Of a stretch of 64,000 nucleotides of DNA, positions 8,033 to 61,941 are shown piece after piece; position 1 is the stretch's first letter, and the number at the start of each line of letters is the position of its first letter. The DNA comes from an uncultured Gammaproteobacteria bacterium. Lineage in GTDB: Bacteria; Patescibacteriota; Patescibacteriia; Magasanikbacterales; UBA922. The stretch spans positions 355 to 64,354 of the forward strand of contig CAZFKS010000006.1 of assembly GCA_964519725.1 (NCBI GenBank), written 5' to 3'. The position numbers and the translations under genes are program-made. The notes under the pieces are model-generated. The model was not told where the DNA came from, did no database searches, and saw only the letters and a program-made list of their open reading frames with translations.

Positions 8033-8091
8033 GACTGCCTCCTGGCAAAATTGAAGTTGACGAACTGGAAACCGAAGAAACATTAATCTTG

Positions 8092-40898: not shown

Positions 40899-40901
40899 AA
40901 T

Positions 40902-45772: not shown

Positions 45773-46869
45773 GCCCCAAAAAAGTTACGAATTTCCTGGC
45801 AAACGTAATTAATTTCTTCGTCAGTTAAAGTGTAGGCAGACGGTAACCACAGTGATTGTGGTGAAGTTTTGGTACTGGCAGGAAATTGGTCATCACTGGC
45901 TAGGTAGGCTTTTTGGGTGTGAAGTGGGTACCAATATTTGCGTGAATCAATATTTTTTTCCAGTAAATAAGCGACTAATTCATCGCGTTTATCTAGATAC
46001 ACATCAGTCCACTGAGGCACAGCGCCATTCTCTAAATCACAGGGGTAAAAATGTAGGTCAGGAATATCGCGCAAATTTTCTGAGTATAATTTGTAAAAAT
46101 GTCTCATCCGGCTCACGCGTTCGTCCAAGTATTCTAGCTGGCCTAAACCAACCGCGGCTTGGAGATTGGTAAATTTAAAATTGTAACCAACCACATCGTG
46201 CCGGTCATTGCCACCAGTACCGCGAACTGGCCGGCCCTGATCTTTTAATTCTCTGATTTTAACATTTAATTCAGGGTTATCAGTCACTACCACCCCGCCT
46301 TGGCCAGTAGTAATAGTTTTATTAGGTGAAAAAGAAAAACAACCAGCATCACCAAGAGTGCCTAAAAATTTACCTTCATATTTAGACATTAACGCTTCAG
46401 CCGCGTCTTCTACTACAAAGAGTGAGTGTTCTTTGGCAATTTTAATTATCTCTTTTAAATTAGCAGCCCGGCCAGTCACGTGCACTGGCATAATCGCTTT
46501 GGTACGGGGGGTAATTGCTGAGACCATGGCTGGTACACTCATGGTTAGATCGGCTGGGTTGACATCAACTAAAATTGGGGTAGCACCGCACAAACTGACC
46601 GCATTGGCGGTAGCAATAAAGGTCATGTCTGGAACAATTACTTCATCACCTGGACCAACTCCCAGTGCTTTAAGAGCCAAAAATAAAGCTGAAGTGCAGC
46701 TAGTGGCCGTGATCGCGTGTTTTGAACCAACTAGAGCGGCAATTTTATCTTCAAATTCAAAAGCCAGGTTGCCTTCATTAACATAACTACTGTTTAGGAC
46801 ACCAGTGACTAATTCATGTTCTTTGGGACCAATTTTTGGTTCCCACCAGGGAATGCGGCGGTCAATCAT
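45769..46869 (-). CDS. DegT/DnrJ/EryC1/StrS PLP-dependent sugar aminotransferase (perosamine-synthetase-like)
   Basis: [26 protein letters not shown]...; the Lys region ...[17 protein letters not shown]. It converges on gmd with a 4-bp overlap. Confidence 0.85.
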
Positions 46870-46874
46870 ATAAT

Positions 46875-47243
46875 TTAAACTTTAGCTGGAAAAATATCTG
46901 GATTAGTTAAAGAAAAAGCTTTAGTTTTGAGCAAAATAAAATAACCACCTGCAGTAAAGGTAAGCGCGTGGGTTTCGTAAGGCTCAAAAATGATTCCCTG
47001 ATTTGGGGTTAGGTTAAATTTTTTAACCTTAGCGCGCGTAGATTTTACACTGCGCATTGAGCCGCTGACTGAGCCGCTTAGTAAAAAGAACAGCACTCGA
47101 CTTTTCTTGTGATAGTGGTGGCCCATGACCGCCCCTTTGCGCATTTTACCTGAATTTACTGATTGCCAGGGTTCGCCATTGGCACACTCAATAAAAAGTC
47201 CGCGTTGGTCGAGTCTGGTAAAAACCGAAGTGATTTTTTTCAT
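46875..47243 (-). CDS. WxcM/FdtA-like cupin (sugar 3,4-ketoisomerase-like)
   Basis: ~125 aa with cupin His residues (GHHYHKK). It sits directly upstream of the DegT gene on the same strand. Start ambiguous: ATG at 47243 or TTG at 47267. Confidence 0.5.
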   Translation of the reverse strand: MKKITSVFTRLDQRGLFIECANGEPWQSVNSGKMRKGAVMGHHYHKKSRVLFFLLSGSVSGSMRSVKSTRAKVKKFNLTPNQGIIFEPYETHALTFTAGGYFILLKTKAFSLTNPDIFPAKV

Positions 47244-47332
47244 ACGGTTTCTATAGTAACCTATCAAGACTAGTCTGACAAGTTTGGGGGTGGGGGAGGG
47301 TGGTTAAATTTTAGCTAAATTTAGCAATAAAC

Positions 47333-47361
47333 TTGACATCAGTAGCTTAAATACCTATACT
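47333..47361 (+). promoter_or_regulatory. canonical sigma-70 promoter (TTGACA-N17-TATACT) for the second glycan operon
   Basis: TTGACA at 47333-38, 17-nt spacer, TATACT at 47356-61, ~20 nt before the 47381 ATG. Confidence 0.55.
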
Positions 47362-47380: not shown

Positions 47381-48577
47381 ATGCGAATTTTTTTTGTCAC
47401 CTCTAAACTTAACTTTGAAAAGGCCGGTGGATCAGTGGATGAGATTGACCTAATGGCCAGAACTTTGCACGAATTTGGCCACACGGTCACGGTTTTAACC
47501 GTGTTTGCTCAGTATAATTCCTTGGCCCCGGTTCCTTACACAGTAAAAGAAGAAAGAATTACCGCTGTCGGCCAGTTGGGTATTCAAAGCCAGATTTTTC
47601 AGATTTTAAAAAAGTATCAGTCAGAAACTGATGTTTTTTATGTTGATGGACACACATATTTGTATGGCGCTGGTGCGTACCGGTTAAGTAAAAACAGTGT
47701 TCCAGTCATGGCTTTGTTTAACCGCGAGCTAACAGTTTGGCCTGATGAAAATGTATCAGCGCTGTTTGGTGCCCTCCAAAAAAAGACCGTGTTACAAAAA
47801 GTAAAGAAAAAACTTCGGTGGTTGGTGGAACGTTACCTGGGAATTTGGTTGGCCAATCACTTGGACCACTTCACCTTTACTAATCCTTTTTTGGAATTAG
47901 CCTACTCACGTTTTGGTTTAAAAACCACTGGGCGATCAAGTATTATTGGTGACCCGTATGATTTTAATAAAATCTATCATACCTTAGGTGTGACCCCAGA
48001 TGCTTACGCTAAAAGAAACAAAACCGATGGTGTTATTGAATTATTTTACTCTAGCCGCATGGTAGCGGGGAAAGGTTTTGACCTTTTACTTACCGCCTTT
48101 AAACTGGTTGAAAATAAAAGTAAATTTAAATTAATTTTAGGAGGTACGGGTCCAGAAGAAAACATGGTTAAAAAAATGATCCATGATCTTGAGCTTGAGT
48201 CATACGTGGAACTGCCGGGCTGGGTTACCAAAGAACAATTGTTTGCGACTCTAGCTAGAGTGGACATTTTTGTGCAAGCCCGGTGGCGTTCTGACATGTC
48301 ATCAATGTCATTGACTGAAGCCATGGCGTTTGGTTTGCCAAGTATTGTTCCGGCAGGTGGTGGTATTGCTTGGGTTGGTGGCCAAAGCAGTTTAACTTTT
48401 ACTCCGGATGATCCGATTTCTTTGGCTGAACAAATTACCAAACTTGGGGCTGATTCAAATTTAAGAAAAAAATTGTCCCAAAATTGCTACGAGCGTTTAC
48501 AAGAGTCTGATGTTAATTATCGAAAAACGTTACGTACCGTTGAAACAACCATGGAACGATTAGTGTCTCGCAAATAG
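47381..48577 (+). CDS. GT4 glycosyltransferase
   Basis: RIFFVTSKLNFEKAGGSVDEI...SRMVAGKGFDLLL...MSLTEAMAFGLPSIV. Confidence 0.75.
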   Translation: MRIFFVTSKLNFEKAGGSVDEIDLMARTLHEFGHTVTVLTVFAQYNSLAPVPYTVKEERITAVGQLGIQSQIFQILKKYQSETDVFYVDGHTYLYGAGAYRLSKNSVPVMALFNRELTVWPDENVSALFGALQKKTVLQKVKKKLRWLVERYLGIWLANHLDHFTFTNPFLELAYSRFGLKTTGRSSIIGDPYDFNKIYHTLGVTPDAYAKRNKTDGVIELFYSSRMVAGKGFDLLLTAFKLVENKSKFKLILGGTGPEENMVKKMIHDLELESYVELPGWVTKEQLFATLARVDIFVQARWRSDMSSMSLTEAMAFGLPSIVPAGGGIAWVGGQSSLTFTPDDPISLAEQITKLGADSNLRKKLSQNCYERLQESDVNYRKTLRTVETTMERLVSRK

Positions 48578-48578
48578 T

Positions 48579-49391
48579 ATGTTTTCTGCGCTCACAAAGA
48601 AAATTCAGGTTCTGAAAAATCTTAATTGGTCATGGGCGTGGCGGTATTACCGCAAGCATTTTAAAATTCATTTTTTTTATTTTTTAGCCAAGATTCAGGG
48701 TAAAAAATATTTAACCGTAACTGTATCTGGCACGCCAGTGAAATTAGGCTTTAAGCAGCCATACCATCATTTGTATGCGCGCGCCCTAGCTAAACATGAA
48801 CATGAGTACACTCTGCTGTGTCAATTTAAGCACGCAGCGGCAGCGGTTGGCGCAGGGGATTACATTGTTGATTTTGGTGGGTATAATGGCATGTATGGCT
48901 TGCTTGCGGCTGCGGTTAACCCCCAAGCTACGGTAATTATTGTTGAAGCTGACCCAACCAATGTTGAGGAAATTAAAGCTAATATCGAGCTCAATCAATA
49001 CCAAAATGTTTCAGTTAGTCCAGTGGCCATTGCTGGTGAAAGTGGCACACTTAAATTTCGTTTGCACCAGAGTGGCACAGCGGGTAAATGCGATGAGAAC
49101 GGTGAATACGCGGTGACAGCAGTGACTTTGGCTGAAGTTTTAAAGGGCTCTACTCCAGTCACCGCTTTACTTAAATTTGATGTGCTTGGTGCTGAGTACG
49201 ATGCTTTGTTAAAGGCCAAAACTATTTTGGAAAAAATTCCTCAGCTACGAATTTTACTTGAGTTTTATCCAGTTTTACCTGAAGCTGAAACCAAATTTTG
49301 GGAATATTGTCAGGCCTTAGGATTACAATCAATTTACCTGTATCCACGCAGTGATGGTGGTTCAACTTTTTATTGGTTAACAAAAGGTTAA
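48579..49391 (+). CDS. FkbM-family methyltransferase (putative)
   Basis: DFGGYNGMYGLLAAAV resembles the FkbM D-x-G-A-N-x-G motif. Size fits. Confidence 0.45.
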   Translation: MFSALTKKIQVLKNLNWSWAWRYYRKHFKIHFFYFLAKIQGKKYLTVTVSGTPVKLGFKQPYHHLYARALAKHEHEYTLLCQFKHAAAAVGAGDYIVDFGGYNGMYGLLAAAVNPQATVIIVEADPTNVEEIKANIELNQYQNVSVSPVAIAGESGTLKFRLHQSGTAGKCDENGEYAVTAVTLAEVLKGSTPVTALLKFDVLGAEYDALLKAKTILEKIPQLRILLEFYPVLPEAETKFWEYCQALGLQSIYLYPRSDGGSTFYWLTKG

Positions 49392-49392: not shown

Positions 49393-50913
49393 ATGAAAGC
49401 GTGTCTATATTTACAACGTCGATTTGCTTACATTGGTCATGAGCTAGCCAAAACTTTAAAAGCTGATTTTGGTGTGAGTGAATTTTGTGGTTATGTGGAA
49501 CAGCGCTCCTCACTAAAATTTTTACAAGAACAAAAGGATATTAATTACAGTACCCTTCTTCTTGATGAAGATATTGTGGGGGCTTATGCTAATGAACCAT
49601 TAAATTTGGCTTACTTAGCTGAGCTGGAAAAAAAATACGGTAAGCCGAGTCTGTGGCCTTATTTGGCTGAAGATCGGGTGATTCGTTATTCACTGTTAGT
49701 GCGGGCCTACCCCTCTGATTCTTCACGCTATTCGCACGAAGAAATGCTTAGAATGCTCCAGACCACAGCTCGGGCAATTGAAGACATGCTCGAAAAAGAA
49801 AAACCAGATTTTATTTTCATGTCAGTAATCAGTGGGCTAGGTAGTTATCTACTCTATACCATTGCTAAGGCTAAAGGGATTAAAACCTACAGTTTGTTTA
49901 ATCCGCGGATTGAAGAACGCTACGCGATTACTGATAATCCTTTTTCTGATCCCACTTTGCGTGATTCAATAATGAAAATGGGTGAACATCGGCCCGAAGA
50001 TAAAGTGTTTATTTCTAGAGCCGAAGAATTTATTGCTGAATTTAGAAAAAAACCAACCTATTATTTAGAAAAATCAAAAGCCGCGGCCCATTATCAGAAA
50101 AAAAATAATCGCGCTTCATATTTTTCTTTTTTAGCACTCGCAAATCTCAATCGAACTGTGAGTTGGTTTTTCAAATCTTTTTACGATTTTTATAACAGCC
50201 CAGCCAAAAATGATTACTCAACCATTAACCCTTGGTACGAAACCTGGGATAAGGCCAAACGCAAAGCCCGGATTTTGCGGGGTTATAATGATTTGTTTGA
50301 TCAAATTAAGCCAGATGAGGATTATGCGTTTTTTCCGCTCCAAAGCGAACCAGAGGGTTTGCCAATGCTCTTGGCCCCTAACTACGCTACTGATCAGATT
50401 TGGGTGGTAAAACAAGTAGCCCGCTCTTTGCCAGTACACTTTAAATTGTATGTTAAGGAGCATCCGGTCATGATTGGAAAAAGACCACGTTCTTATTATG
50501 AGGCATTAAAAAAGATTCCTAATGTGCGGCTGCTAAATCCAGGTTTGTCGGCCTTAGCTTTAATTGATAAAGCAAAACTTATTTTTACCATTAGTAGCAC
50601 TACTGGAATGGAAGCAGTTTTGCTCGGCAAACCAATCATTACCTTGTCTGATGTGTTTTACGCGGTGATTCCTGGCGTGGGGCGGTGCCGGTCAGTTGAA
50701 GAACTGCCTGAGCTAGTCAAAGAAAAATTAACTAATTTTAAAAGTAATGAAACTGACATAGTAAATACCGTCGCTTTTTTCTTGAAAGAAAGTGTGCCAG
50801 TAGATTTAACCCAGCTCTGGGATGTTGAAGGTGGAAGCACAATTCAGAATCAGCGCCAAACTTTGTACCCACTGGCTGAATTACTCATGAAAAAGGTCAG
50901 TAAGTTGTTATAA
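49393..50913 (+). CDS. capsule-polysaccharide-biosynthesis (KpsS/KpsC, Capsule_synth/GT107-like) protein
   Basis: YAFFPLQSEPEGLPMLLAPNY resembles the Capsule_synth 'PLQ' block. ~500 aa, soluble. Confidence 0.45.
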   Translation: MKACLYLQRRFAYIGHELAKTLKADFGVSEFCGYVEQRSSLKFLQEQKDINYSTLLLDEDIVGAYANEPLNLAYLAELEKKYGKPSLWPYLAEDRVIRYSLLVRAYPSDSSRYSHEEMLRMLQTTARAIEDMLEKEKPDFIFMSVISGLGSYLLYTIAKAKGIKTYSLFNPRIEERYAITDNPFSDPTLRDSIMKMGEHRPEDKVFISRAEEFIAEFRKKPTYYLEKSKAAAHYQKKNNRASYFSFLALANLNRTVSWFFKSFYDFYNSPAKNDYSTINPWYETWDKAKRKARILRGYNDLFDQIKPDEDYAFFPLQSEPEGLPMLLAPNYATDQIWVVKQVARSLPVHFKLYVKEHPVMIGKRPRSYYEALKKIPNVRLLNPGLSALALIDKAKLIFTISSTTGMEAVLLGKPIITLSDVFYAVIPGVGRCRSVEELPELVKEKLTNFKSNETDIVNTVAFFLKESVPVDLTQLWDVEGGSTIQNQRQTLYPLAELLMKKVSKLL

Positions 50914-50915: not shown

Positions 50916-53171
50916 ATGTCTAAACCAGTCAAAATTATTGCTACACTTGGTCCGGCTACAAAAACTGAAGCAGCCGTTCGTTTACTCAAAGATCGGGGTG
51001 TGGATTTAGTGCGCGTAAACATGTCGCACTCAAATTTGACTGACCTTAGGTATTTTATTGATTTAGCTAAAAAGGTTGGGATTCCGTTTGTGCTTGATAC
51101 TGAAGGCTCACAAATTCGAACTGGGGCTTTAACTGAAAAAATGATTTATGTTGAAGAGGGGGCTGAGATAGCTCTGTACGCTGACGCAATTATTGGGGAT
51201 AGTACCAAGCTAACCTTAACCCCACACACGGTTGTTAGTGAACTAGAAGCAGGAGATATTTTGCGCGTGGATTTTGACACTTTGATTTTGCGCGTCAATG
51301 ACACCAGTACGGTTAAACAAGGATTTATCAAAGCCACGGCTGTATCAGCCGGTTACGTGGGCAATAATAAAGGCGTGGTGGTGGATACGGGCACGCCGCG
51401 CAACTTTACCCTGCCTGGTTTAACCGCCAAAGATCGAGAAGCGATTGCCATTGGCTTGGCCGAAGGCGTGGGTTACATTGCGGCTTCATTTATGCGCTCA
51501 GCGGCTTATGTAGATGAAGTACGGGAAGTCACTAAAGGAACCATGAAAATTATTTCTAAAATTGAGTGTGTTGATGGTCTAGAAAATTTAGACGAAATTA
51601 TTGAGGCCACTGATTTTTTACTAATTGATCGGGGTGATTTAAGTAAGGAAATTCCTTTGGAAAAAATTCCTTTGACCCAAAAAATTATTTTGCACCGGGC
51701 ACGCCAAAAAAATAAAGGTGTGTTTGTGGCGACTAATTTGCTAGAAACCATGGTGGAAAAAAAGAAACCAACGCGCGCTGAAATTCACGATGTGGTAAAT
51801 ACAATTATGGATGGTGCTTATGGTTTGGCCCTGTCAGCTGAAACAGCAATTGGTAAATATCCAGTTGAATGCGCTACGATGCTTAATCGTTTGATCTTGC
51901 ACATTGATAAAACTGTGGCTGTAAAAGATTTTGTATCAGAAGAAGACAAACTGGTGGCCAAAATGGAGTCAGATAATTATTTGTTAAATATTGAATCAGC
52001 CTCTACTTTAATTGAGCCACACGGCGGCAAATTAGTTGACCGCATGCTAAAGAAAAAACCTGAGACAGCCTGGCTTAAAACCTTACCAAAAATTGCCCTG
52101 GATGATAATGCGGAAATGGATGTGGAGCAAATTGCGATCGGCACTTTTAGTCCGCTAACTGGTTTCATGGGTGAAAAAGAAGTGCAGAGTGTGCTTGATA
52201 CCATGCGTTTACCAAATGGTTTGATTTGGCCACTGCCAATTGTCCTGGATGTAAATGAAGAAACCGCTAAAAAATTAGAAGTCGGTAAACAGGCGGTGCT
52301 CCAAAGTGTTCAGGGAACAGCCTTGGCTCTTATTACCGTGAGTGAATTATATTCGATTGATAAAAAAGAATTTGCCGAAAAATTATACGGTACCTTAGAT
52401 GAGACTCACCCTGGGGTGGCGCGGGTGATGAAAATGAACCCAGTCTTAGTGGCTGGGGCGATTGATTTGTTTGAGCGCCGTCCATCTGAAACCAGGGCCT
52501 ATGAATTAACCCCACGGCAAGTGCGTCGTTTGTTTGATGAGCGCGGCTGGACCAAAGTAGTTGGTTTTCATACCCGCAATGTTATTCACCGTAGTCATGA
52601 ATTTATTCAATTAAAAGCCATGGAACAGGAATTGTGTGATGGCCTGTTTGTACACCCAGTAATTGGAAAGAAAAAACCTCGTGATTTTAATGCTCCTTAC
52701 ATTATCAAGAGCTATGAAATGATGATGAAGGATTTTTATCCTCGCAATAAAGTGGTGTTTGCTACTTACGCTACTTTTTCTCGTTACGCTGGTCCGCGTG
52801 AAGCACTGTTTACTGCTCTCTGCCGGCAAAACTTTGGCTGTAGTCACTTTATTGTTGGACGCGATCACACGGGAGTTGGGAAATTTTACGCACCAACGGC
52901 GTCACATGATATTTTTGATCAATTTCCTGATTTGAAAATTAAACCCGTGCGTTTTGAACAAGTTTTTTACTCTGCTAAAAAGAATGACCACGTGCACGAG
53001 GCGGAAGATACTGAACATGCTCAAGACGAGAAACTTCACATTAGTGGGACTGAAGCGCGCAAAATGTTAGAAAAAGGCCAGCTTCCACCCAACTGGTTTA
53101 TGCGTCCAGAAATTTCAGAGATGATTCTAAAGGCGCTGGCTAATGGCGAAGAAGTTTTTGTTAAAGAATAA
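50916..53171 (+). CDS. fusion protein: pyruvate-kinase-like TIM-barrel domain (N) + sulfate adenylyltransferase / ATP sulfurylase (C)
   Basis: N-terminal ~340 aa: IIATLGPAT...LVRVNMSHSN...LDTEGSQIRTG...ISKIECVDGLENLDEII...DRGDLSKEIP...VATNLLETM. The PK active-site Arg/Asn, Lys-Ile-Glu, Asp and Thr are all kept, and there is no PK C-terminal domain. C-terminal ~400 aa: HTRNVIHRSHE and IVGRDHTGVG are ATP-sulfurylase signatures. It is a single uninterrupted ORF. Confidence 0.7.
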   Translation: MSKPVKIIATLGPATKTEAAVRLLKDRGVDLVRVNMSHSNLTDLRYFIDLAKKVGIPFVLDTEGSQIRTGALTEKMIYVEEGAEIALYADAIIGDSTKLTLTPHTVVSELEAGDILRVDFDTLILRVNDTSTVKQGFIKATAVSAGYVGNNKGVVVDTGTPRNFTLPGLTAKDREAIAIGLAEGVGYIAASFMRSAAYVDEVREVTKGTMKIISKIECVDGLENLDEIIEATDFLLIDRGDLSKEIPLEKIPLTQKIILHRARQKNKGVFVATNLLETMVEKKKPTRAEIHDVVNTIMDGAYGLALSAETAIGKYPVECATMLNRLILHIDKTVAVKDFVSEEDKLVAKMESDNYLLNIESASTLIEPHGGKLVDRMLKKKPETAWLKTLPKIALDDNAEMDVEQIAIGTFSPLTGFMGEKEVQSVLDTMRLPNGLIWPLPIVLDVNEETAKKLEVGKQAVLQSVQGTALALITVSELYSIDKKEFAEKLYGTLDETHPGVARVMKMNPVLVAGAIDLFERRPSETRAYELTPRQVRRLFDERGWTKVVGFHTRNVIHRSHEFIQLKAMEQELCDGLFVHPVIGKKKPRDFNAPYIIKSYEMMMKDFYPRNKVVFATYATFSRYAGPREALFTALCRQNFGCSHFIVGRDHTGVGKFYAPTASHDIFDQFPDLKIKPVRFEQVFYSAKKNDHVHEAEDTEHAQDEKLHISGTEARKMLEKGQLPPNWFMRPEISEMILKALANGEEVFVKE

Positions 53172-53173
53172 TT

Positions 53174-54430
53174 ATGACAAGCCTTAATGCTTTAGAATTG
53201 TCGCGTTTCATCTTTGCTCTTGTCGCTCTGGTAGCTGGTGCACATTGTTTGGGGTGGGTTTTTCAAAAGTGTAAAATGCCCAAGGTAATTGGGGAGATTA
53301 GTGCCGGTTTATTGCTTGGCCCAACAGTTTTAGGTTGGCTTTACCCGGTTGGATATAGTTATTTATTTACCAGTTTTCCAGAATCAAGCAAATTATTATC
53401 ACTCATGTCATCATTTGGCTTGATTTTTCTCATGTTTATTTCTGGATTTGAATCCAAAGAAAAAATTGCTAAACCAGATCAAAAAATTGTTGTTAACTTG
53501 CTTTTGGGAGCCACAATCATTCCACTCTTAGGTGGTTGGTTTATTCCTAAAATATTCGATATCAAGCCATTTTTAGGTACAGCCAATAATCTCCCGGCAC
53601 TCACTGCAATTTTGGCTTTGGCAGTAGCTGTCACTTCAATTCCAGTGATTGCAAAAATTTTTCTTGACCTCGGTCTGATCCAAACTAGGTTTGCCCGTCT
53701 TGTTTTGGCCGTAGCCACGCTTGAAGATATTATTTTGTGGGGAATTCTGGCGGTAGTGAGTGGTGTAATTGTCAAAGGTGATACGTCGGTTACAAGTATC
53801 TTGGTTAGTGTGGCTATTACCATGGCATTTTTTGTGGTTGCGCTTTTGGTAGTACCGCGAGTCATAAAACCAATCAGTAATAATCGGTTTAACATATTAA
53901 TAAAAGCATCGCCAGTTTCATATATTTTAATTATTTGTTTAATTTTTTCTTTTTTAGCTAGTGTACTCAATGTAAATTTAATTTTTGGTGCTTTATTGGC
54001 GGGCATTATCGTCGCTCGCATGAATGATGAGCGTTTTGAAAAAGTAAAAAATACGATCAAAGATTTTTCCGTTGCCCTCTTTATTCCGGTCTATTTTGCT
54101 GTGGTTGGTTTAAAATTAGATTTAGTACATGCGTTCGATGTCTCTGCCTTTATTACGTTTCTATTGTTTGCCATAGTACTAAAAACTGCAGGTACTTTAA
54201 TTGCCGCCAAGGGTTTGAGAATGAACTGGACCTCAAGCGTAAATTTTGCGGTGGCTTTGAATGCACGCGGTGGCCCTGGTATTGTCTTGGCAACAGTGGC
54301 GTATGACCTTGGAATTATTAACCAAAGTTTGTTTGTAATTTTGGTTATGACCGCGATTGTTACTTCACTTTTGGCGGGTATTTGGTTTAGAAGGGAACGT
54401 GAAAGTGGCCGTGAATTATTACCAGAATAA
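53174..54430 (+). CDS. cation:proton antiporter (CPA/Na_H_exchanger family) membrane protein
   Basis: MPKVIGEISAGLLLGPTVLGWL is the N-terminal CPA signature. ~12 TM segments. Confidence 0.6.
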   Translation: MTSLNALELSRFIFALVALVAGAHCLGWVFQKCKMPKVIGEISAGLLLGPTVLGWLYPVGYSYLFTSFPESSKLLSLMSSFGLIFLMFISGFESKEKIAKPDQKIVVNLLLGATIIPLLGGWFIPKIFDIKPFLGTANNLPALTAILALAVAVTSIPVIAKIFLDLGLIQTRFARLVLAVATLEDIILWGILAVVSGVIVKGDTSVTSILVSVAITMAFFVVALLVVPRVIKPISNNRFNILIKASPVSYILIICLIFSFLASVLNVNLIFGALLAGIIVARMNDERFEKVKNTIKDFSVALFIPVYFAVVGLKLDLVHAFDVSAFITFLLFAIVLKTAGTLIAAKGLRMNWTSSVNFAVALNARGGPGIVLATVAYDLGIINQSLFVILVMTAIVTSLLAGIWFRRERESGRELLPE

Positions 54431-54431
54431 T

Positions 54432-54959
54432 ATGAGTACAATTCTTTGGTTTACTGGTTTAAGCGGGAGTGGCAAGACCACCTTGGCTTTTTTGCTCAAA
54501 GAAAAATTAGAACAAGGTGGCAAAACAGTCACTATTGTGGATGGTGACACGGTGCGTGATAAATATGAACAGAAATTAGGTTTTACCAGAGCTGATATTA
54601 TTCAAAATAATGACCGCATCACCACGTACATAACTGAAATTAAAAACCAGTTTGATTTTATTTTAGTGCCAGTGATTGCGCCGTTTAGTGAAGTACGTGC
54701 GGCCAATAAAACCAAATTGGGGGCAGATTATTTAGAAATTTATGTGTCATGCCCAGTGGCGGTGTGTGCGGAGCGTGATGTAAAAGGTCTGTATGCCAAA
54801 GCTGAACGTGGTGAAATTGAAGCCATGATTGGGATTGATCCGCAAAAACCATACGAAGTTCCAACTAACCCCGATCTGATCATTGATACAGTTAATCAGA
54901 GTCAGTCAGAAAACATTGAAGCTTTGCTAGAATGGTTAAAGGGTCTGCAGAAAATATGA
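54432..54959 (+). CDS. cysC: adenylyl-sulfate (APS) kinase
   Basis: The ATG at 54432 gives ILWFTGLSGSGKTTLA...VDGDTVR, P-loop APS-kinase motifs. The track start 54357 is an extension. Confidence 0.85.
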   Translation: MSTILWFTGLSGSGKTTLAFLLKEKLEQGGKTVTIVDGDTVRDKYEQKLGFTRADIIQNNDRITTYITEIKNQFDFILVPVIAPFSEVRAANKTKLGADYLEIYVSCPVAVCAERDVKGLYAKAERGEIEAMIGIDPQKPYEVPTNPDLIIDTVNQSQSENIEALLEWLKGLQKI

Positions 54960-55753
54960 CCCCATCATTTTCGTCAGATTTGGTTTTGGCTATTCAGGCG
55001 GCTGAGGCGGCTGGTAAAGCCGTAACGCAAATTTATCAAACTGATTATTCATTCCAAATCAAGTCAGACAATTCGCCAGTAACAGAGGCTGATTTGGTGA
55101 GTGATCAAATCATTAGTACAACTTTAGCAAAAACTAATTACCCAATTAGTTCTGAGGAAAATGAACATCTGACCGATTGTAGTGTGGGTAAGGCCTGGAT
55201 CGTTGATCCACTTGATGGGACGAAAGATTTTATTGCAAAAACTGGCGAATTTACAATTTTAATTGGTTTAATTGAAAATGGACAAGCTGTGGCCGGGGTA
55301 ATTTACCAGCCAACCACTAATTTGATTTGGGTGGCGGAAAAAGGCAAGGGCGCTTATAAGCGGGTGCAAAATAATTGGGAAAAAATTTGGGTAAGAGAAC
55401 AGACTGAACTTAGCACAGCGCAGGTCACCATGAGTCGACACCATTTAGGAGAACTAGAAAAAAATATTTTGCAGACTTTGGGTTTAAGCTACACCTCAAA
55501 AGGTAGCTGCGGTTATAAAATGGCCCAAATTGCTTCGGGGAAGTTTGATCTTTACTTTGCGTTTGGGCCCAAACAGTGGGACATATGCGCTGGTGACATT
55601 ATTTTGGCTGAGGCCGGGGGTAGTTTAACCCAGGTCACGGGCGAACCCATTCAGTACGGTGGTTTGGACAGGAAAATTCCTAATGGTATAATCGCTGCCA
55701 GTGGTGTACACCGCCAATTTATTGATTTTTACAAACAGTATGGCAAAAACTAA
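54956..55753 (+). CDS. cysQ: 3'(2'),5'-bisphosphate nucleotidase (inositol-monophosphatase fold, CysQ-like)
   Basis: ATGA overlap with cysC. EENEHL...WIVDPLDGTKDFI...WDICAG motifs. Confidence 0.75.
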   Translation: MTPSFSSDLVLAIQAAEAAGKAVTQIYQTDYSFQIKSDNSPVTEADLVSDQIISTTLAKTNYPISSEENEHLTDCSVGKAWIVDPLDGTKDFIAKTGEFTILIGLIENGQAVAGVIYQPTTNLIWVAEKGKGAYKRVQNNWEKIWVREQTELSTAQVTMSRHHLGELEKNILQTLGLSYTSKGSCGYKMAQIASGKFDLYFAFGPKQWDICAGDIILAEAGGSLTQVTGEPIQYGGLDRKIPNGIIAASGVHRQFIDFYKQYGKN

Positions 55754-56702
55754 AGCCGTGGTTGGGGAGCGCAAACCATTTGTTAAAAAGCTGCTTTTGG
55801 TAGAAGGTATTTCTCGGTCTGGAAAATTTCTCATGGCTGATCTTTTGGGTGGCTTAGAAGGTATTGAGGCCGTCCAGTATTATGGACTTTTAGAACACAT
55901 TCCATTTTTGGAAAAGTTTGGGTTAATGGACCGTAAAACTGCTAGTGAAATTTTAAAGTGTGAAATTGATACGCATGCTTATGAAATGGCGATTGGGCGT
56001 AATTTTAATCACCGGAAAACGGACAAATCATCAATTCATAAAAATCCGCACGCGGCTAAATTTCTCAAACGCCCAGAACAAAGTGATCTAGAAAAATTAC
56101 TGGCTGAATATCGCAAGCAGGATCCATATAGTTTTTTTGTCATGCACGAGCTTATTCCGAACGCGAAAATATTTTTTGAAACTTTTCCAAATTTAAAAAT
56201 TGTTAGTTTGCAGCGCAGCCCAGTGGAATTAGTAGATTCGTGGTATCGTCGCGGGTTGGCAAAACGCCTGGGTGATGATCCAACGTTATTTATTATTCCT
56301 TTTAAAAAAGGCAAAGCTAAGTTTCCGTGGTATGCGGTGGGCCAGGAAAAAGAATACAGCCAACTAACTGATATGGATCGGACAATTTTTGCCATTGAGC
56401 GAATTGTAAGTCTGTATGCAGAAGGTTTGAAGAAATTAAATAAAAAAGAGCAGGCCCAAATTTTGTTTGTACGGTACGAAGATATCATGACTGATACTAA
56501 AGTGGTAGTAAAAAAGATTAGTAACTTTTTGGGTAAAAAACCCGTGAAACAACTGGCGGCGGTGCTTAAGCGAGAGCGGTTACCAAACCTTGCTTACCGT
56601 GGCACACGTGAGCAAAAATTGCAAAGCATTAAAAAATTGGCCAGCCCAAGTTATTTCAAGCGTTTGCAAAAATTAGAGGCCAAATATTTGATTAGCCAGT
56701 AA
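55740..56702 (+). CDS. putative PAPS-dependent sulfotransferase
   Basis: LLLVEGISRSGKFLMADLL resembles the 5'-PSB loop of bacterial/Stf0-type sulfotransferases. The C-terminal VRYEDIMTD...ISNFLG resembles the sulfotransferase tail. It sits right after sat/cysC/cysQ. Confidence 0.4.
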   Translation: MAKTKAVVGERKPFVKKLLLVEGISRSGKFLMADLLGGLEGIEAVQYYGLLEHIPFLEKFGLMDRKTASEILKCEIDTHAYEMAIGRNFNHRKTDKSSIHKNPHAAKFLKRPEQSDLEKLLAEYRKQDPYSFFVMHELIPNAKIFFETFPNLKIVSLQRSPVELVDSWYRRGLAKRLGDDPTLFIIPFKKGKAKFPWYAVGQEKEYSQLTDMDRTIFAIERIVSLYAEGLKKLNKKEQAQILFVRYEDIMTDTKVVVKKISNFLGKKPVKQLAAVLKRERLPNLAYRGTREQKLQSIKKLASPSYFKRLQKLEAKYLISQ

Positions 56703-56703: not shown

Positions 56704-57462
56704 ATGAAAAATATTCGTCTGATTCCCCGCCTTGATATTAAAGGCGAAAATGTTGTGAAGCCGGTTCAAACTGAAGCTTTGCGAGTGGTTGGTGATCCAA
56801 CGGTTTTGGCCAAGCGCTACTACGAAGAGGGAGCGGACGAGTTGTTGTACTTAGATATTGTGGCTAGTTTATACCAACGAAACATTGATTTTGACTTATT
56901 AAAAAAAGTGACTGAGGGAATTTTCATTCCAGTTACGGTTGGTGGTGGAATTCGAACGATTCAAGATATTAATAATGCGCTCAGAGCTGGGGCTGATAAA
57001 GTGGCCATCAACACTCATGTTATTCATCATCCCGAATTTATTACTGAGGCAGTTCAGGAATTTGGAGCACAGTGTATTACTGTATATATTGAGGCTAAAC
57101 GAAGACCAAATGGTAGTTACGAGGCTTATACAGATGGTGGTCGAGAGCGGAGCGGAGTTGAAGTCATTAGCTGGGCTAAGCGGGCGGTCGAATTAGGTGC
57201 GGGTGAAATTTTAATTACTTCAATTGATGCTGATGGAACAAAAAATGGTTTTGATTTGGAATTAATTAAACAAATCACAGCGTGGGCCACAGTGCCAGTG
57301 ATTGCTCATGGTGGAGCCTGTGATCCAGCTTCAATTGCTAGGGTGATTATCGAGGGTCAAGCTGACGCAGTCGCCGCGTCAACTATTTTTCACTTTGAAG
57401 AGTATTCAATTCCGACTGTAAAAAAATATTTACAGGCAGAAAAAATTCCAGTCCGCCTATGA
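56704..57462 (+). CDS. HisF-like cyclase subunit paralogue (WbuZ-type) of a sugar amidotransferase complex
   Basis: IRLIPRLDIKGENVVKPVQTEALRVVGDPTVLAKRYYEEGADELLYLDIVAS is a HisF fold. Confidence 0.8.
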   Translation: MKNIRLIPRLDIKGENVVKPVQTEALRVVGDPTVLAKRYYEEGADELLYLDIVASLYQRNIDFDLLKKVTEGIFIPVTVGGGIRTIQDINNALRAGADKVAINTHVIHHPEFITEAVQEFGAQCITVYIEAKRRPNGSYEAYTDGGRERSGVEVISWAKRAVELGAGEILITSIDADGTKNGFDLELIKQITAWATVPVIAHGGACDPASIARVIIEGQADAVAASTIFHFEEYSIPTVKKYLQAEKIPVRL

Positions 57463-58094
57463 CTCAACCAATTGTTGTAATCATTGATTATGGCGTGGGA
57501 AATTTGCACAGCTTAGCGCGCGCGTTCCGGGCGGTTGGAGCAAACCCAATTATTTCCAGTGATCCTGAAATGATTAAAACCGCCCCTCGGTTAGTTTTGC
57601 CTGGTGTAGGTGCGTTTGCGGCTGGCATGCACGGGCTTCAGGAACGCGGCCTAGAAGCCGCAGTCTTAGCGGCCGCAGCTAGAAACATCCCAATTTTAGG
57701 GATTTGTTTAGGGGCGCAGCTACTTTTGACTGAAGGCCATGAATTTGGTATTTTTAAAGGGTTAAATTTGATTCCTGGTACAGTGGAACGTTTCCCTGAT
57801 TTGCCAGAAAAAGAGAAAATTCCTCATATGGGTTGGAATCAAATTACCCCAGCCTCAGGTAAGGAATGGTCAGACACTATTTTATCAGGCACAGAAGGAA
57901 AAGAAACGTATTTTCTCCATTCTTATATTTTGCGCCCGACAGACAAACAAGATTGTTTGTCAGAAACAACGTATGGTGGCTACACTTTTTGTTCAGTGGT
58001 TAAAAAAAATAACATTACTGGTTGTCAGTTTCATCCAGAAAAAAGTGGTGAAGTTGGTTTAGAAATTATTAGAAATTTTTCCAAGAGCGTATGA
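57459..58094 (+). CDS. HisH-like glutamine amidotransferase subunit (WbuY-type)
   Basis: IVVIIDYGVGNLHSLARAF...LVLPGVGAF...CLGAQ...QFHPEKS is a class I GATase triad. ATGA overlap. Confidence 0.8.
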   Translation: MTQPIVVIIDYGVGNLHSLARAFRAVGANPIISSDPEMIKTAPRLVLPGVGAFAAGMHGLQERGLEAAVLAAAARNIPILGICLGAQLLLTEGHEFGIFKGLNLIPGTVERFPDLPEKEKIPHMGWNQITPASGKEWSDTILSGTEGKETYFLHSYILRPTDKQDCLSETTYGGYTFCSVVKKNNITGCQFHPEKSGEVGLEIIRNFSKSV

Positions 58095-59278
58095 GTTTAA
58101 ATACTCTGGATAAGCAATTAAGTGAACAGCAAGCTGAAGTTTTTTATTGCACTAAATGTGTAGTTTCTAACCAACGCCCGCGGGTAACTTTTGATGAAAA
58201 TGGAGTGTGTGCCGCGTGTCAGTACGCTGAGATTAAACATCAGCGCATTGATTGGGCTGCTCGCGAAGCTGAACTAAAAGTTTTACTGGATAAACACCGT
58301 TCGACTGACGGTAGTTTTGATGTTGTAGTGCCTGGTAGTGGTGGCAAAGACAGCGCGTACGTAGCTCATCTTTTAAAGACTGAATATGGAATGCACCCGC
58401 TCGTTGTGACCTGGGCTCCATTTATTTACACTGAGATTGGGTGGAAGAATTTTCAAAATTTTATCCAAGCTGGTTTTACTGATTTAAATTGTTTTCCTGA
58501 CGCGACTATTCACCGCAAATTAGCCCGGATTGCCTTTGAATTAAAAGGTGATGCTTGGGAACCATTTGGCTATGGTCAAAAATCTTACGCTTTTCACATT
58601 GCCACCAAATTTAAAATTCCACTTATTTTTTACGGAGAAAATGGAGAAGCAGAATATGGCGGGTCACTGCAAAATGCTTATAAACCCTACGAATCAGTGG
58701 AAGATTGGGAGCGTTTATATTACAAAGGTTCGGGGGTTGACGCTTTGGCTGAAGCAGGTCTTGAAATGGGAATTTTTAAACCAGGCGAAATTGAGCCACA
58801 CACGTTAGATTTGTACAAAGCTCCACCTCTTGAAGAAATCAATAAACTGGGTATCCAGATGCACTGGATGTCATATTACCGCAAGTGGGTGCCACAGGAA
58901 AATTTTTACTACGCGCAAAAAAATACTGGTTTTACTACTAATGAAGATGGTCGTTCAGAAGGTACGTATTCTAAATATGCTAGTCTGGATGATAAAACTG
59001 ATGGTTTTCATTTTTATCTTGGTTTTATTAAGTTTGGTTTAGGACGAGCCACTCGCGACGCCATGATGGAAATTCGGTCTGGGCATATTACCCGTGAAGA
59101 AGCCGTGGCTCTAGTTCGCCGGTATGATGGCGAATTTCCAAAAAAATATTTTAAAGAATTTTTAGAATACTTGAATATTACTGAAGAAAAATTTTGGGAA
59201 GTGGTTGATCGCTACCGTGCGCCACATCTTTGGGAAAAAGTTAATGGTGAGTGGAAATTAAAATATCAAGTTGAATAA
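58091..59278 (+). CDS. N-acetyl-sugar amidotransferase (WbuX/PseA/LegAm-type, PP-loop)
   Basis: FYCTKCVVSNQRPRVTFDENGVCAACQY is a Zn-ribbon. VVVPGSGGKDSAYVAHLL is a PP-loop. ATGA overlap. Confidence 0.75.
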   Translation: MSLNTLDKQLSEQQAEVFYCTKCVVSNQRPRVTFDENGVCAACQYAEIKHQRIDWAAREAELKVLLDKHRSTDGSFDVVVPGSGGKDSAYVAHLLKTEYGMHPLVVTWAPFIYTEIGWKNFQNFIQAGFTDLNCFPDATIHRKLARIAFELKGDAWEPFGYGQKSYAFHIATKFKIPLIFYGENGEAEYGGSLQNAYKPYESVEDWERLYYKGSGVDALAEAGLEMGIFKPGEIEPHTLDLYKAPPLEEINKLGIQMHWMSYYRKWVPQENFYYAQKNTGFTTNEDGRSEGTYSKYASLDDKTDGFHFYLGFIKFGLGRATRDAMMEIRSGHITREEAVALVRRYDGEFPKKYFKEFLEYLNITEEKFWEVVDRYRAPHLWEKVNGEWKLKYQVE

Positions 59279-59279
59279 T

Positions 59280-60020
59280 ATGTCTAAACCCGAGGTGCTG
59301 GCGATTATTCCGGCGAGACTTGGCTCTAAACGAATCCCGCTAAAAAATATTAAAAATTTTTTAGGTAAGCCTTTATTGGCTTACACCATTGAGCAGGCCC
59401 GGAAAACTCCGTTTATTACCCGGGTCATTGTTGATACTGACTCACCAAAAATTGCGGCCATCGCCAAAAAATATGGGGCAGAAGTCCCATTCTTGCGTCC
59501 TGCTCACTTAGCGACTGATACAGCCAAAGTGTATGATAGTTTTGAACATGCCCTGCACAAATTAAAAAAAGATGAAGGGTACACCCCTGATTACCTGGTG
59601 ATTTTGCAAACCACCTCACCACTTCGTGAATTAAAAGACATTACCGCGTGCTGGGAGATGATCCAAAAAACCAAGGCCACCACTGTGCTCACCGTTTGTC
59701 CGACTCACCCACGGTTGTATCACTTAAGCAAAACTAATGATATTGAGCTGGTTAATGGGACTGAGAAATTGTCTACTAATATGCAGGCCTGGCCAGCTGG
59801 ATACCTACTCAATGGCTGTTTTGTGTACATTGTTAAAACCAAAGTTTTACTCAAAGAAAAAGTAATTATTACCAAAAAAACCAAAGCTGTGGTTTGTCCC
59901 AAGTGGCGCTCAGTGGATTTAGATACGCCAGAAGAGTGGGTGATGGCTGAAGTGCTTTATAAAAATCAAGCAAAAATTAAAGCCCAATTGAAAAAAATGG
60001 GCGCCACTGATTCTTTATGA
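59280..60020 (+). CDS. CMP-nonulosonic acid synthetase (acylneuraminate cytidylyltransferase family)
   Basis: The ATG at 59280 gives VLAIIPARLGSKRIPLKNIKNFLGKPLLAYTIEQA...VIVDTDS...FLRPAHLATD. The track start is a TTG at 59271. Confidence 0.85.
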   Translation: MSKPEVLAIIPARLGSKRIPLKNIKNFLGKPLLAYTIEQARKTPFITRVIVDTDSPKIAAIAKKYGAEVPFLRPAHLATDTAKVYDSFEHALHKLKKDEGYTPDYLVILQTTSPLRELKDITACWEMIQKTKATTVLTVCPTHPRLYHLSKTNDIELVNGTEKLSTNMQAWPAGYLLNGCFVYIVKTKVLLKEKVIITKKTKAVVCPKWRSVDLDTPEEWVMAEVLYKNQAKIKAQLKKMGATDSL

Positions 60021-60952
60021 TTGGTTTAATTGGGTTTGGGTCAATTGGTGAAAGGCACTACCAAAATTTAATTGCGGCTGGTGAAAAGGTCGTGGTTTTT
60101 TCGGCACGTAATGATTTATCAAATATTACCGCCACTAATAAGTGGACCGAATTTCAGAAACTTGGTCCATACCAAGCCGTTTTTATTTGCAATGAAACAG
60201 CCAAACATTTGCAGACTATTAAAAAAGTAATGGCCCTTAAACCCCAGGCAATTTTTATTGAAAAACCGCTCAGTCATAACTCAGTTGGTTTACGTAATTT
60301 AGCCAAAGAATTGCAAAAACAAAAGATTAGTTTATGGGTGGGTTATAATATGCATTTTTTGCGCCCGCTCATGCGCATTAAAGAAATTATTACTAGTAAA
60401 AAAATTGGAAAAGTTTTGTATTTGCGCGCTGCTGTAGGACAAGATTTGCGTGAGTGGCGCAAACGTGATTATAAACAAATTTACTCAGCCAAGAAAAAAG
60501 GCGGTGGTGGTGTGCTACTGGATTTAGTGCATGATTTAAATTACCCAGCCTGGTTACTTGGTGAAACGTTAATTCCTAAAGCCGCCCTGGTCAGAAAATC
60601 TTCCTCATTAGCAATTGATGTTGAAGATTCAGCTGATAGTTTACTCGCCACCAAAAGCGGCACCATTGTTTCTGTACACCAAGATTATTGTCGCGTGCCA
60701 GGTAAGCGCACTCTGGAAGTTCAGGGCGAAAAGGGGAGTATAGAGTGGGATTCGCTCACTAATTCAGTGATTATCGCCACCAAAGATAAACGAATTGAAG
60801 AAAAATTTAATTTAGATCGTAACGAAATGTACACGGCTGAGTTGGCCTTTTTCCTTAAACAATTGCGCGGTAAAAAATATTTCTCTAATCTGGCTGAAGC
60901 TGTTACAGACGTAATCAATATTGAAAAAATCAAACAGTATGGAAAGAAATAA
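60017..60952 (+). CDS. Gfo/Idh/MocA-family NAD(P)-dependent oxidoreductase
   Basis: MIGLIGFGSIGERHYQNL...IFIEKPLS. Confidence 0.7.
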   Translation: MIGLIGFGSIGERHYQNLIAAGEKVVVFSARNDLSNITATNKWTEFQKLGPYQAVFICNETAKHLQTIKKVMALKPQAIFIEKPLSHNSVGLRNLAKELQKQKISLWVGYNMHFLRPLMRIKEIITSKKIGKVLYLRAAVGQDLREWRKRDYKQIYSAKKKGGGGVLLDLVHDLNYPAWLLGETLIPKAALVRKSSSLAIDVEDSADSLLATKSGTIVSVHQDYCRVPGKRTLEVQGEKGSIEWDSLTNSVIIATKDKRIEEKFNLDRNEMYTAELAFFLKQLRGKKYFSNLAEAVTDVINIEKIKQYGKK

Positions 60953-61940: not shown

Positions 61941-61941
61941 T

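Follow-up and report, generated by a model that had tools for sequence, protein, structure and literature searches.

Here we describe a run of five genes at positions 50916-56702 of a 64,000-nucleotide stretch of contig CAZFKS010000006.1 (this whole stretch is referred to below as the window) that encodes the synthesis of 3'-phosphoadenosine 5'-phosphosulfate (PAPS) together with a predicted PAPS-dependent sulfotransferase. The five genes probably constitute a self-contained sulfation module, set within a co-oriented run of genes for a nonulosonic acid (NulO)-containing surface glycan (47381 to beyond 64000). It is likely that the module serves glycan sulfation; that the NulO itself is the sulfated residue, which we infer from the gene neighbourhood, is close to an even call. 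We predict that the pathway yields a sulfated legionaminic-type sugar, or a glycan bearing such a sugar. Judging by homology, the host is apparently a bacterium of the candidate phyla radiation (CPR), since the named nearest homologues all belong to Patescibacteria lineages.

The initial annotation, made from the sequence alone, placed five consecutive co-oriented genes here, and the open reading frame (ORF) list of the window bears this out—the ORFs are real, all lie on the + strand, and each abuts or overlaps the next. The genes of the module are the following:

50916..53171, + strand: fusion of a pyruvate kinase (PK) barrel (residues 1 to about 350), a PUA-like domain and a Sat-type ATP sulfurylase, 751 residues (Pfam, NCBIfam)
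53174..54430, + strand: CPA2-type (Na_H_Exchanger) membrane transporter, 418 residues, accessory (Pfam, 4.8e-46)
54432..54959, + strand: adenosine 5'-phosphosulfate (APS) kinase of the CysC type (TIGR00455; P-loop GLSGSGKT)
54932..55753, + strand: CysQ-like 3'(2'),5'-bisphosphate nucleotidase, a putative phosphatase of 3'-phosphoadenosine 5'-phosphate (PAP), accessory (Inositol_P, 8.5e-51)
55740..56702, + strand: predicted soluble PAPS-dependent sulfotransferase, 320 residues, of an unnamed and mainly CPR family (Sulfotransfer_1, motifs, fold, synteny)

The ATP sulfurylase and APS kinase named in that annotation both score above NCBIfam cutoffs: the sulfurylase half of the fusion reaches 444 bits with NF003166 (cutoff 387) and 357 bits with TIGR00339 (cutoff 323), and the kinase reaches 162 bits with TIGR00455 (cutoff 138.7). 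The listed kinase ORF opens at TTG 54357 and the domain match begins at residue 27; the true start is ATG 54432, two bases past the transporter stop. The call of a CPA-family transporter also holds, on the Na_H_Exchanger match listed above; the protein has 11 hydrophobic segments and scores 131 bits with TIGR00932, under the cutoff of 238. The proposed CysQ-type PAP phosphatase stands in part: the Inositol_P fold is there and the metal-site motifs SEE, VDPLDGT and WDICAG are intact in the translation, and the CysQ model TIGR01331 is the top NCBIfam match, outscoring the HisN and inositol monophosphatase models, but its 203.9 bits are under the cutoff of 228.8. Because this equivalog cutoff is not reached, we call the protein only CysQ-like, from its context. 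Its gene overlaps the sulfotransferase gene by 14 nt, which couples translation of the sulfotransferase to the PAPS module.

The identity of the 55740-56702 product is central to the argument. It matches Sulfotransfer_1 at 3e-11 (43.7 bits; Pfam cutoff 22), and a fold search returned the P-loop-like alpha/beta sulfotransferase fold—the result on which the initial annotation had staked its proposal. The nearest solved folds are tyrosylprotein sulfotransferases (TPSTs) and polyketide-associated sulfotransferase domains, at 12-16% identity and a template-modelling (TM) score of about 0.45; with identity to the solved folds so low, we place the protein in the PAPS-dependent sulfotransferase superfamily (Sulfotransfer_1/3 clan) as a distant branch. 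The initial annotation had noticed sulfotransferase-like phosphosulfate-binding (PSB) loop and tail motifs, and the sulfotransferase motifs are kept across 39 homologues. The 5'-PSB loop GISRSGK (residues 23-29) comes directly after strand E18-23, and its G23, R26, G28 and K29 (GxxRxGK) are invariant in the alignment. The 3'-phosphate-binding pair, R159 and S167, lies eight residues apart, with each member kept in at least 90% of the homologues, and aligns with RNPRDVVVS of SULT2B1 in a PDB profile search. At the end of central strand E130-136, H136 is invariant and E137 nearly so; H136 falls two positions off the SULT catalytic His in the hidden Markov model alignment. Generally, the catalytic base of sulfotransferases is His in SULTs, and Glu in TPSTs and heparan sulfate sulfotransferases. 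A chance motif match is ruled out by the fold search together with the motif conservation.

The sulfotransferase has no transmembrane segment or signal peptide, which points to sulfation in the cytoplasm. A word-indexed search gave 52 matches, the named ones being Patescibacteria or Collierbacteria, and a profile search of 1.84 billion representatives gave 1,676 proteins at E <=1e-3 and 493 at <=1e-30. Members are nearly all about 320 residues long; the family is sizeable (about 500 clusters) and unnamed.

The link between this family and NulO biosynthesis is found by following the gene across related loci. We used 12 loci from GTDB species representatives (11 with any context, 10 with full 10 kb flanks), reading synteny from tblastn of the window proteins and from an ORF map; the hosts are Yanofskybacteria, Giovannonibacteria, Falkowbacteria, Minisyncoccia, other Patescibacteria and one Omnitrophota, and one locus (L002) is labelled Gammaproteobacteria. 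The sulfotransferase lies no more than 3 kb from the PK-sulfurylase fusion in all 11 loci with context, and APS kinase is present in 10 of the 11, in five of them joined to the C-terminus of the fusion. NulO or acetamidino genes (NeuB, NeuC, the synthetase that activates the NulO with cytidine monophosphate (CMP), or WbuXYZ) stand beside the sulfotransferase at every full-flank locus (10/10), with NeuB in nine, CMP-synthetase in nine and WbuX in seven. The usual gene order is fusion (with or without the kinase), sulfotransferase, sometimes HisF/HisH/WbuX, then CMP-synthetase, GFO, NeuB and NeuC; ATP-grasp, HAD and PIG-L genes often come next. A metagenome scan added 80 further loci, of which the 49 of at least 9 kb were counted—within 8 kb, NulO or acetamidino genes occur in 43 of them and PAPS genes in 32, counts that overstate independence because several loci are near-duplicates.

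The NulO association persists in a sulfotransferase branch of 25-30% identity, and CTP_transf_3 and then NeuB directly follow the gene of one remote member. The conserved unit is therefore not the whole set of five genes that the initial annotation described as a full toolkit to make PAPS, use it and remove PAP: the fusion, APS kinase and sulfotransferase are conserved, whereas the other two genes are accessory, with a CysQ-like gene only in L002 and L032 among the related loci (and a similar gene near the fusion of another locus, L017) and CPA2 homologues next to PAPS genes only in L002, L063, L065 and L075. What is conserved is PAPS synthesis (fusion and APS kinase) plus the sulfotransferase plus the NulO pathway, and it is on the strength of this unit that we favour the NulO or an activated precursor of it as acceptor.

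Several observations on individual loci can be added. The CPA2/Na_H_Exchanger transporter, found in or beside the PAPS genes in five loci when the window (53174-54430) is counted with L002 (7269-8600), L063, L065 and L075, may act in sulfate uptake or counter-ion transport; we considered it as the sulfate importer and set the idea aside, its recurrence in these loci being all that backs it. L002 (CAZWKA010000002.1) has the fullest synteny with the window, and no other locus shares the CPA2 and CysQ-like genes with it in this order. It is titled 'uncultured Gammaproteobacteria bacterium' and the other named relatives are all Patescibacteria; we regard its label as doubtful, and a mislabelled bin or lateral transfer may lie behind it. 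A radical-SAM gene directly follows the sulfotransferase in L004 (10701-12581) and L018 (1002-1889), one with a B12-binding and the other with a SPASM domain, and these enzymes may add further modifications to the same sugar.

The first gene of the module encodes an unusual enzyme. Pfam finds a PK barrel (4.2e-71, residues 4-319), PUA_2 (8.3e-50) and ATP-sulfurylase (1.6e-77) in the one protein. The PK part aligns with G. stearothermophilus pyruvate kinase (PDB 2e28) at 4e-59 over 345 residues; the match ends near residue 350, PUA_2 and the sulfurylase follow, and the C-terminal (effector/tetramer, regulatory) domain of PK is absent. In 26 diverse fusions the PK catalytic set is invariant—RxNxSH (R33, N35, S37), D61, K215-I-E217, RGD241, T273 and PTRAE—as are the sulfurylase motifs HTRN (552-555), H558 and H561 (HxxH), and GRDH (648-651). 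The initial annotation had seen a 'PK-like' domain fused to the sulfurylase; the fusion is real, and the domain is better described, from its residues, as an intact PK catalytic barrel that marks a large fusion family, yet not as a canonical pyruvate kinase. A search with the whole fusion gave more than 4,000 matches, and all 120 listed have PK, PUA_2 and ATP-sulfurylase. Among the matches listed, about a fifth have APS kinase appended at the C-terminus, and the named sources are Patescibacteria, Parcubacteria, Sungbacteria, and Nano- and Woesearchaeota; the sources label these proteins 'pyruvate kinase' or 'sulfate adenylyltransferase'.

Three unrelated fusion loci from CPR bacteria or DPANN archaea all have glycan or sulfation surroundings. 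In L015 the fusion (P0113, by its NCBI name from a Woesearchaeota archaeon) has GT2, PMT_2, APS kinase and sulfatase-family genes as neighbours, with no Pfam-recognisable sulfotransferase nearby; in L016 the neighbours are a Sulfotransfer_1 gene, a flippase and GT4s; and in L017 the fusion (P0150, by its NCBI name from a Parcubacteria group bacterium) neighbours an Inositol_P phosphatase, a Sulfotransfer_3 gene and a fusion of a PQ-loop protein with APS kinase. Two details of these loci stand on their own: the Sulfatase-family protein (PF00884) of L015, at 6748-8004, overlaps the start of the fusion by 4 nt, and the APS kinase of L017 (10258-11058), joined to a PQ-loop/MtN3 (SWEET-like) membrane domain, comes immediately behind the PK-sulfurylase fusion and ahead of a sulfotransferase. 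Additionally, stand-alone PK barrels of 329-359 residues, without the C-terminal domain, occur between APS kinase and sulfotransferase genes in two loci of a distant sulfotransferase branch, L098 (502-3037) and L078 (4299-8966), the latter with two APS kinases and two sulfotransferases; no ATP sulfurylase was detected near either barrel. These barrels carry the fusion signatures DTEGSQIR, IDRGDLS and ATNLLETM. Because copies with the same signature stand alone in PAPS operons, and because of the contexts of the fusions, the data suggest a PK subfamily that is tied to PAPS-using operons and not to glycolysis.

It is moderately likely that the PK domain recycles ADP to ATP for PAPS synthesis, a role that we assign from context. 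The competing view, which we regard as somewhat unlikely, is that the domain is the cell's glycolytic pyruvate kinase fused through an accident of gene order, or that it acts on a substrate other than ADP and recycles no ATP for PAPS. The canonical catalytic residues and the 'pyruvate kinase' labels fit this view, and an altered specificity could be read from one motif: DTEGSQ(I/V)R is kept in the sulfation-associated PK domains (window 50916-51965 and the fusion alignment), at a position where glycolytic pyruvate kinases have the canonical DTKGPEIR, with three changes beside the monovalent-cation/nucleotide site. These changes may mean that the cofactor or substrate preference of the domain differs. 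The same view has to accommodate the missing C-terminal domain, a score of 278.7 against the pyruvate-kinase equivalog TIGR01064 (cutoff 306.4), the keeping of the fusion in thousands of sequences, often with an APS kinase extension, and the signature-bearing barrels that stand alone between an APS kinase and a sulfotransferase gene—which are hard to square with housekeeping glycolysis. ADP recycling for PAPS synthesis thus remains the role that we prefer for the domain.

The module lies inside a glycan island, between glycosyltransferase/capsule genes and a NulO pathway, as the initial annotation had it: GT4, FkbM and Capsule_synth-like genes are found upstream and the genes from HisF, HisH and WbuX to NeuC downstream. 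The neighbouring features are the following:

44702..45772, + strand: GDP-mannose-4,6-dehydratase-type sugar dehydratase (GDP_Man_Dehyd, 1.5e-138)
45769..46869, - strand: DegT / LegC-family-like sugar aminotransferase (DegT_DnrJ_EryC1, 5.5e-108)
47333..47361, + strand: promoter-like site TTGACA-17-TATACT (11/12 positions, best of the scan)
47381..48577, + strand: GT4-type glycosyltransferase (Glycos_transf_1, 6.7e-24)
48579..49391, + strand: FkbM-family methyltransferase (TIGR01444, 66 bits, cutoff 37.7)
49393..50913, + strand: candidate CMP-NulO transferase, 506 residues, with a KpsC/WbbB-like fold (fold match)
56704..57462, + strand: HisF/WbuZ-like cyclase subunit, acetamidino formation (WbuZ TIGR03572, 271 bits, cutoff 299.7; HisF, 290 bits, cutoff 294.6; both under)
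57459..58094, + strand: HisH/WbuY-like glutaminase subunit (TIGR01855, 201 bits, cutoff 105)
58091..59278, + strand: WbuX-type N-acetyl-sugar amidotransferase (TIGR03573, 351 bits, cutoff 203)
59271..60020, + strand: CMP-NulO synthetase (cytidylyltransferase; CTP_transf_3, 1.1e-28)
60017..60952, + strand: GFO/IDH/MocA oxidoreductase (family match; downstream of the sulfotransferase in most loci)
60921..61940, + strand: second GFO/IDH/MocA oxidoreductase (family match)
61915..62997, + strand: NeuB-type NulO synthase (TIGR03569, 428 bits, cutoff 399.65)
62994..63998, + strand: NeuC/LegG-type hydrolysing UDP-GlcNAc 2-epimerase, cut by the window end (Epimerase_2, 6.4e-68)

From 47381 to the window end (64000) there are sixteen + strand genes, with gaps of at most 3 nt or overlaps between them. 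The promoter-like site falls in the sole real intergenic gap upstream of this run; totals of the promoter and terminator scan are no higher than those of a shuffled control, so the scan lends the site weak support, and it is the location of the site that is suggestive. The NeuC/LegG-type gene runs off the window end in a frame absent from the ORF list. NeuB, the hydrolysing 2-epimerase and CMP-synthetase together make this a Neu/Leg-type NulO locus, with Neu and Leg not separated by the models. For NeuB the PseI model gives 298 (cutoff 340), and for CMP-synthetase the top NCBIfam model is PseF at 167 bits, under its cutoff of 205.7; a NeuC-type epimerase speaks against the pseudaminic route. 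A 5,7-diamino sugar of legionaminic type, bearing an acetamidino group, is the probable NulO. Upstream of the run, the top NCBIfam match of the aminotransferase is the LegC family (280 bits, under the cutoff of 420), and homologues of this gene lie near the sulfotransferase in most related loci. Homologues of the sugar dehydratase lie near the module in L003, L006 and L009, and the GT4 gene is kept in L002, L003, L006, L007 and L009.

The gene immediately before the module encodes a candidate transferase that may install the CMP-activated nine-carbon sugar. We read it as such because its product has a fold match to the solved transferases of beta-linked 3-deoxy-D-manno-octulosonic acid (Kdo), KpsC and WbbB (KpsC/KpsS/WbbB type, GT107/GT99), and a weak C-terminal match to the BFO_1060 family (42.5 bits, cutoff 200); the Capsule_synth match is also weak (36 bits, cutoff 20) and covers residues 338-436 only. 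Members of the BFO_1060 family are the Tannerella forsythia transferases for pseudaminic and legionaminic acid, whose function is proven genetically (PMC5420450).

From these parts a route can be proposed, which starts from observed enzyme identities, intact motifs and gene neighbourhood and infers the acceptor, the sulfation site and where the glycan ends up. The sulfurylase half of the fusion would convert ATP and sulfate to APS, and APS kinase would convert APS to PAPS. The soluble cytoplasmic sulfotransferase would then move the sulfo group to an acceptor, of which the NulO is the likeliest—either while it is still a CMP-activated sugar or a precursor, or once it forms the end of the lipid-linked glycan. 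The CysQ-like phosphatase would clear the inhibitory PAP, and the KpsC/WbbB-like transferase (49393-50913) would install the NulO. In characterised APS kinases, ADP forms a dead-end complex with APS; the PK barrel would use phosphoenolpyruvate (PEP) to turn the ADP released by APS kinase back into ATP, removing ADP. In a cell short of energy, such PEP coupling would both draw PAPS synthesis forward and power it, with ATP regenerated locally.

A number of points weigh against this proposal and must be considered. The sulfotransferase has a modest Pfam score (43.7 bits) and no NCBIfam model matched it. Two of the five genes, those for the CysQ-like protein and the CPA2 transporter, do not belong to the conserved part of the module, and no recognisable sulfate importer is present. 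About a third of the metagenome loci lack PAPS genes within 8 kb and 6/49 lack NulO genes, in a set whose near-duplicate loci are not independent. The role of the PK domain is argued from context and textbook enzymology. The sequence covered is one contig of the genome, so a PAPS reductase elsewhere is conceivable. A literature search found no report of a sulfated bacterial NulO, which may mean that the sugar is new or that our reading is wrong; moreover, gene neighbourhood cannot tell sulfation of the NulO from sulfation of an adjacent sugar.

This last point opens the way to a second view, in which PAPS is indeed made for glycan sulfation and the acceptor is some other residue, such as a hexose, a 6-deoxy-amino sugar or a lipid-linked intermediate, with the NulO genes merely co-resident. 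We consider this unlikely. The glycosyltransferases and other sugar genes differ from locus to locus, whereas the pairing of the sulfotransferase with NeuB, CMP-synthetase or WbuX holds down to 25-30% identity, and a pairing that persists while the glycosyltransferases vary is the pattern expected if the NulO is the common substrate. We therefore keep the NulO as the favoured acceptor, at the strength given at the outset.

It is very improbable that the module performs ordinary assimilatory sulfate activation, with the reduction genes elsewhere in the genome and the placement in a glycan island due to chance. The PAPS assimilation route does begin with Sat, CysC and CysQ, only this part of the genome was seen, and sulfate-activation genes of CPR bacteria are routinely filed under sulfate reduction in genome surveys (PMC11608272). 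We scanned every window ORF of at least 100 residues not nested in a longer gene with Pfam, NCBIfam or both, and found no PAPS/APS reductase, sulfite reductase or cysteine synthase among them; tblastn with E. coli CysH, CysI and CysJ gave a best E of 1.1 in the window and the 12 related loci (217 kb; 281 kb in total). The fusion is in a glycan or sulfotransferase context at every locus examined, and only 4.95% of CPR genomes have cysH or aprA in one survey (PMC11608272). At the locus itself, assimilatory sulfate reduction is ruled out by the lack of any CysH, CysI or CysJ homologue together with the coupling of the sulfotransferase to the module through the 14-nt overlap. The claims that no sulfite or sulfide reductase genes lie nearby, and that the module points to glycan sulfation and not to assimilation, are thus upheld—the latter by the motifs, by the missing reductive genes and by a precedent in sulfated capsules (PMC11641403).

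The chance is likewise very slim that the acceptor is not a glycan (for example a lipid or small metabolite, a ribosomal peptide or a tyrosine in a protein): the solved folds nearest to the enzyme are tyrosylprotein and polyketide-associated sulfotransferases and a radical-SAM/SPASM gene stands next to the sulfotransferase on L018, a short contig with a remote member, but the fold likeness is at superfamily level only, the gene lies among NulO genes in 43/49 metagenome loci and 10/10 full-flank genome loci, and the window has no polyketide synthase, nonribosomal peptide synthetase or ribosomally synthesised, modified peptide genes.

Elsewhere in the island (17.8-47 kb) are genes for an O-antigen-ligase/Wzy_C-like protein, for transferases of GT4 type (eight) and GT2 (four), a PMT_2 GT-C enzyme, an AsnB-type amidotransferase, several methyltransferases, an MBOAT and AlgX/SGNH pair, the GDP-mannose-dehydratase-type enzyme, the LegC-like aminotransferase, and three polytopic membrane proteins without a Pfam match. 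The MBOAT membrane acyltransferase and the SGNH/AlgX-like protein that follows it, which has one N-terminal hydrophobic segment (39423-42131), resemble alginate-type O-acetylation machinery; by this analogy the island glycan is probably also O-acetylated, outside the cytoplasm. A 130-residue ORF at 46875-47267 (- strand) matches only the C-terminal part of the Polysacc_synt_C flippase and has no strong hydrophobic segment. Its counterpart in L002 (886-1278) has 45% identity, and because length and position are the same there, the ORF may be a real small protein and not a pseudogene remnant.

Just upstream of the glycan island are two large putative surface proteins, at 8610-10466 (- strand) and 13197-16970 (+ strand), which are possible glycosylation targets; one has DUF11/CARDB domains, and the other has 1,257 residues, no Pfam match and one N-terminal hydrophobic segment. 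Further away, a 697-residue ORF at 6023-8116 (- strand) lies in a stretch of 58% GC in a window of about 40% GC, matches Dicty_CTDC cysteine-rich repeats (6.7e-39) and overlaps the annotated start of a response regulator (5194-6279); the many overlapping ORFs in other frames at 6023-8116 suggest a repetitive, compositionally odd gene. Rfam and tRNA scans of the window found only a tRNA-Cys (8370-8444), irrelevant to the module.

Extending this reading from the locus to the family, we tentatively propose that CPR bacteria, and by extension DPANN archaea, make O-sulfated NulOs through a dedicated sulfotransferase family and a PEP-coupled PAPS synthase (PK barrel and ATP sulfurylase, with or without APS kinase); at present this is possible, though short of probable. 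Organisms of both groups are found attached to host cells, and very little is known of their surface chemistry—a cap that is sulfated, sialic-acid-like and strongly anionic would be a plausible determinant of adhesion or immune evasion. If true, the proposal would supply the first prokaryotic counterpart of sulfated sialic acid, and many 'pyruvate kinase' and 'sulfate adenylyltransferase' calls in the reconstructed metabolism of such ultra-small organisms would reflect surface-glycan decoration, perhaps for host attachment, and not glycolysis or sulfur cycling. A natural PEP-coupled PAPS synthase would also be of practical interest for biocatalysis, given that enzymatic sulfation is usually limited by the supply of PAPS. 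Environmental biofilm matrices, such as those of granular sludge, are both sialylated and sulfated, and the sulfotransferases responsible are largely unidentified (PMC10483923); the family described here is a concrete candidate for matrix sulfation and comes with a predicted new sugar, a sulfated legionaminic-type NulO. Pyruvate kinase has been described as patchy and laterally transferred in CPR bacteria (PMC7304191), and if the fusion serves glycan sulfation, inferences on CPR pyruvate kinase (PMC7304191) and on CPR sulfate reduction (PMC11608272) need to be revisited.

How does the module compare with known systems? PAPS-synthesis genes together with sulfotransferases in a polysaccharide cluster are a hallmark of the way sulfated polysaccharides are made, and Vibrio sp. 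KMM 8419, which has such a cluster, makes a capsule structurally proven to be sulfated (PMC11641403). The window has the same hallmark, with PAPS genes and a sulfotransferase gene inside a glycan cluster. It is like Vibrio sp. KMM 8419 and Cobetia marina KMM 1449 in having a dedicated PAPS set (there a second set) and a sulfotransferase inside the cluster; however, the Vibrio and Cobetia clusters have GTP-coupled CysD/CysN with CysC, other sulfotransferase families and capsule export by an ATP-binding cassette (ABC) transporter, and rhamnose is the sulfated sugar, whereas the window has a Sat-type sulfurylase fused to a PK barrel, an unnamed and mainly CPR sulfotransferase, and a NulO pathway as partner. 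The statement in the initial annotation that few bacterial glycan sulfation systems are defined is somewhat dated now that these sulfated capsules have been described. Older bacterial sulfation systems include rhizobial NodPQ/NodH (Nod factor) and LpsS (lipopolysaccharide), and mycobacterial CysDNC/CysQ with Stf0, Stf1 and Stf9. Their acceptors are a lipochitooligosaccharide, lipopolysaccharide and trehalose, with no NulO linkage and no PK fusion, and sequence identity is 12-13%.

On the NulO side, the window shares NeuB, NeuC, CMP-synthetase and a GFO oxidoreductase with the legionaminic/pseudaminic loci of Campylobacter (ptm/pse), Legionella (O-antigen) and Tannerella forsythia (S-layer O-glycan), along with a WbuX/PseA-type amidotransferase, HisH/HisF and a LegC-like aminotransferase. 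To our knowledge, none of these loci has PAPS synthesis genes or a sulfotransferase. A dedicated NulO transferase, in the window a candidate one, is a further shared element (PMC5420450). In animals sulfated sialic acids do occur, and WSCD1 and WSCD2 are vertebrate sialate O-sulfotransferases (PMC9304399). If the NulO is the acceptor in our system, these offer a functional analogy—they are Golgi membrane proteins that act on glycoconjugate-bound sialic acid. WSCD1 and WSCD2 are the only enzymes known to us that sulfate a nonulosonic acid. TPST1/2, at 14-15% identity, are eukaryotic Golgi enzymes that act on peptides, in contrast to the purely glycan context here.

The fusion follows the principle of known fused PAPS synthases, such as metazoan PAPSS1/2, the fungal ATP sulfurylase with an APS-kinase-like domain, and bacterial CysN-CysC and Sat-CysC, in which consecutive activation enzymes are joined. 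We know of no PAPS synthase with a pyruvate-kinase domain, and our literature search found no report of the PK-sulfurylase fusion. The search likewise found no report of CPR or DPANN sulfotransferases, and the CPR genomics literature that we checked (including PMC7304191) does not mention sulfate activation. The architecture is therefore of a known kind, and the host, the NulO linkage, the PK-fused Sat-type sulfurylase and the sulfotransferase family are new; of more interest than the single locus are the family-wide patterns, namely the linkage of the sulfotransferase to NulO genes and the occurrence of the PK-sulfurylase fusion in both CPR bacteria and DPANN archaea.

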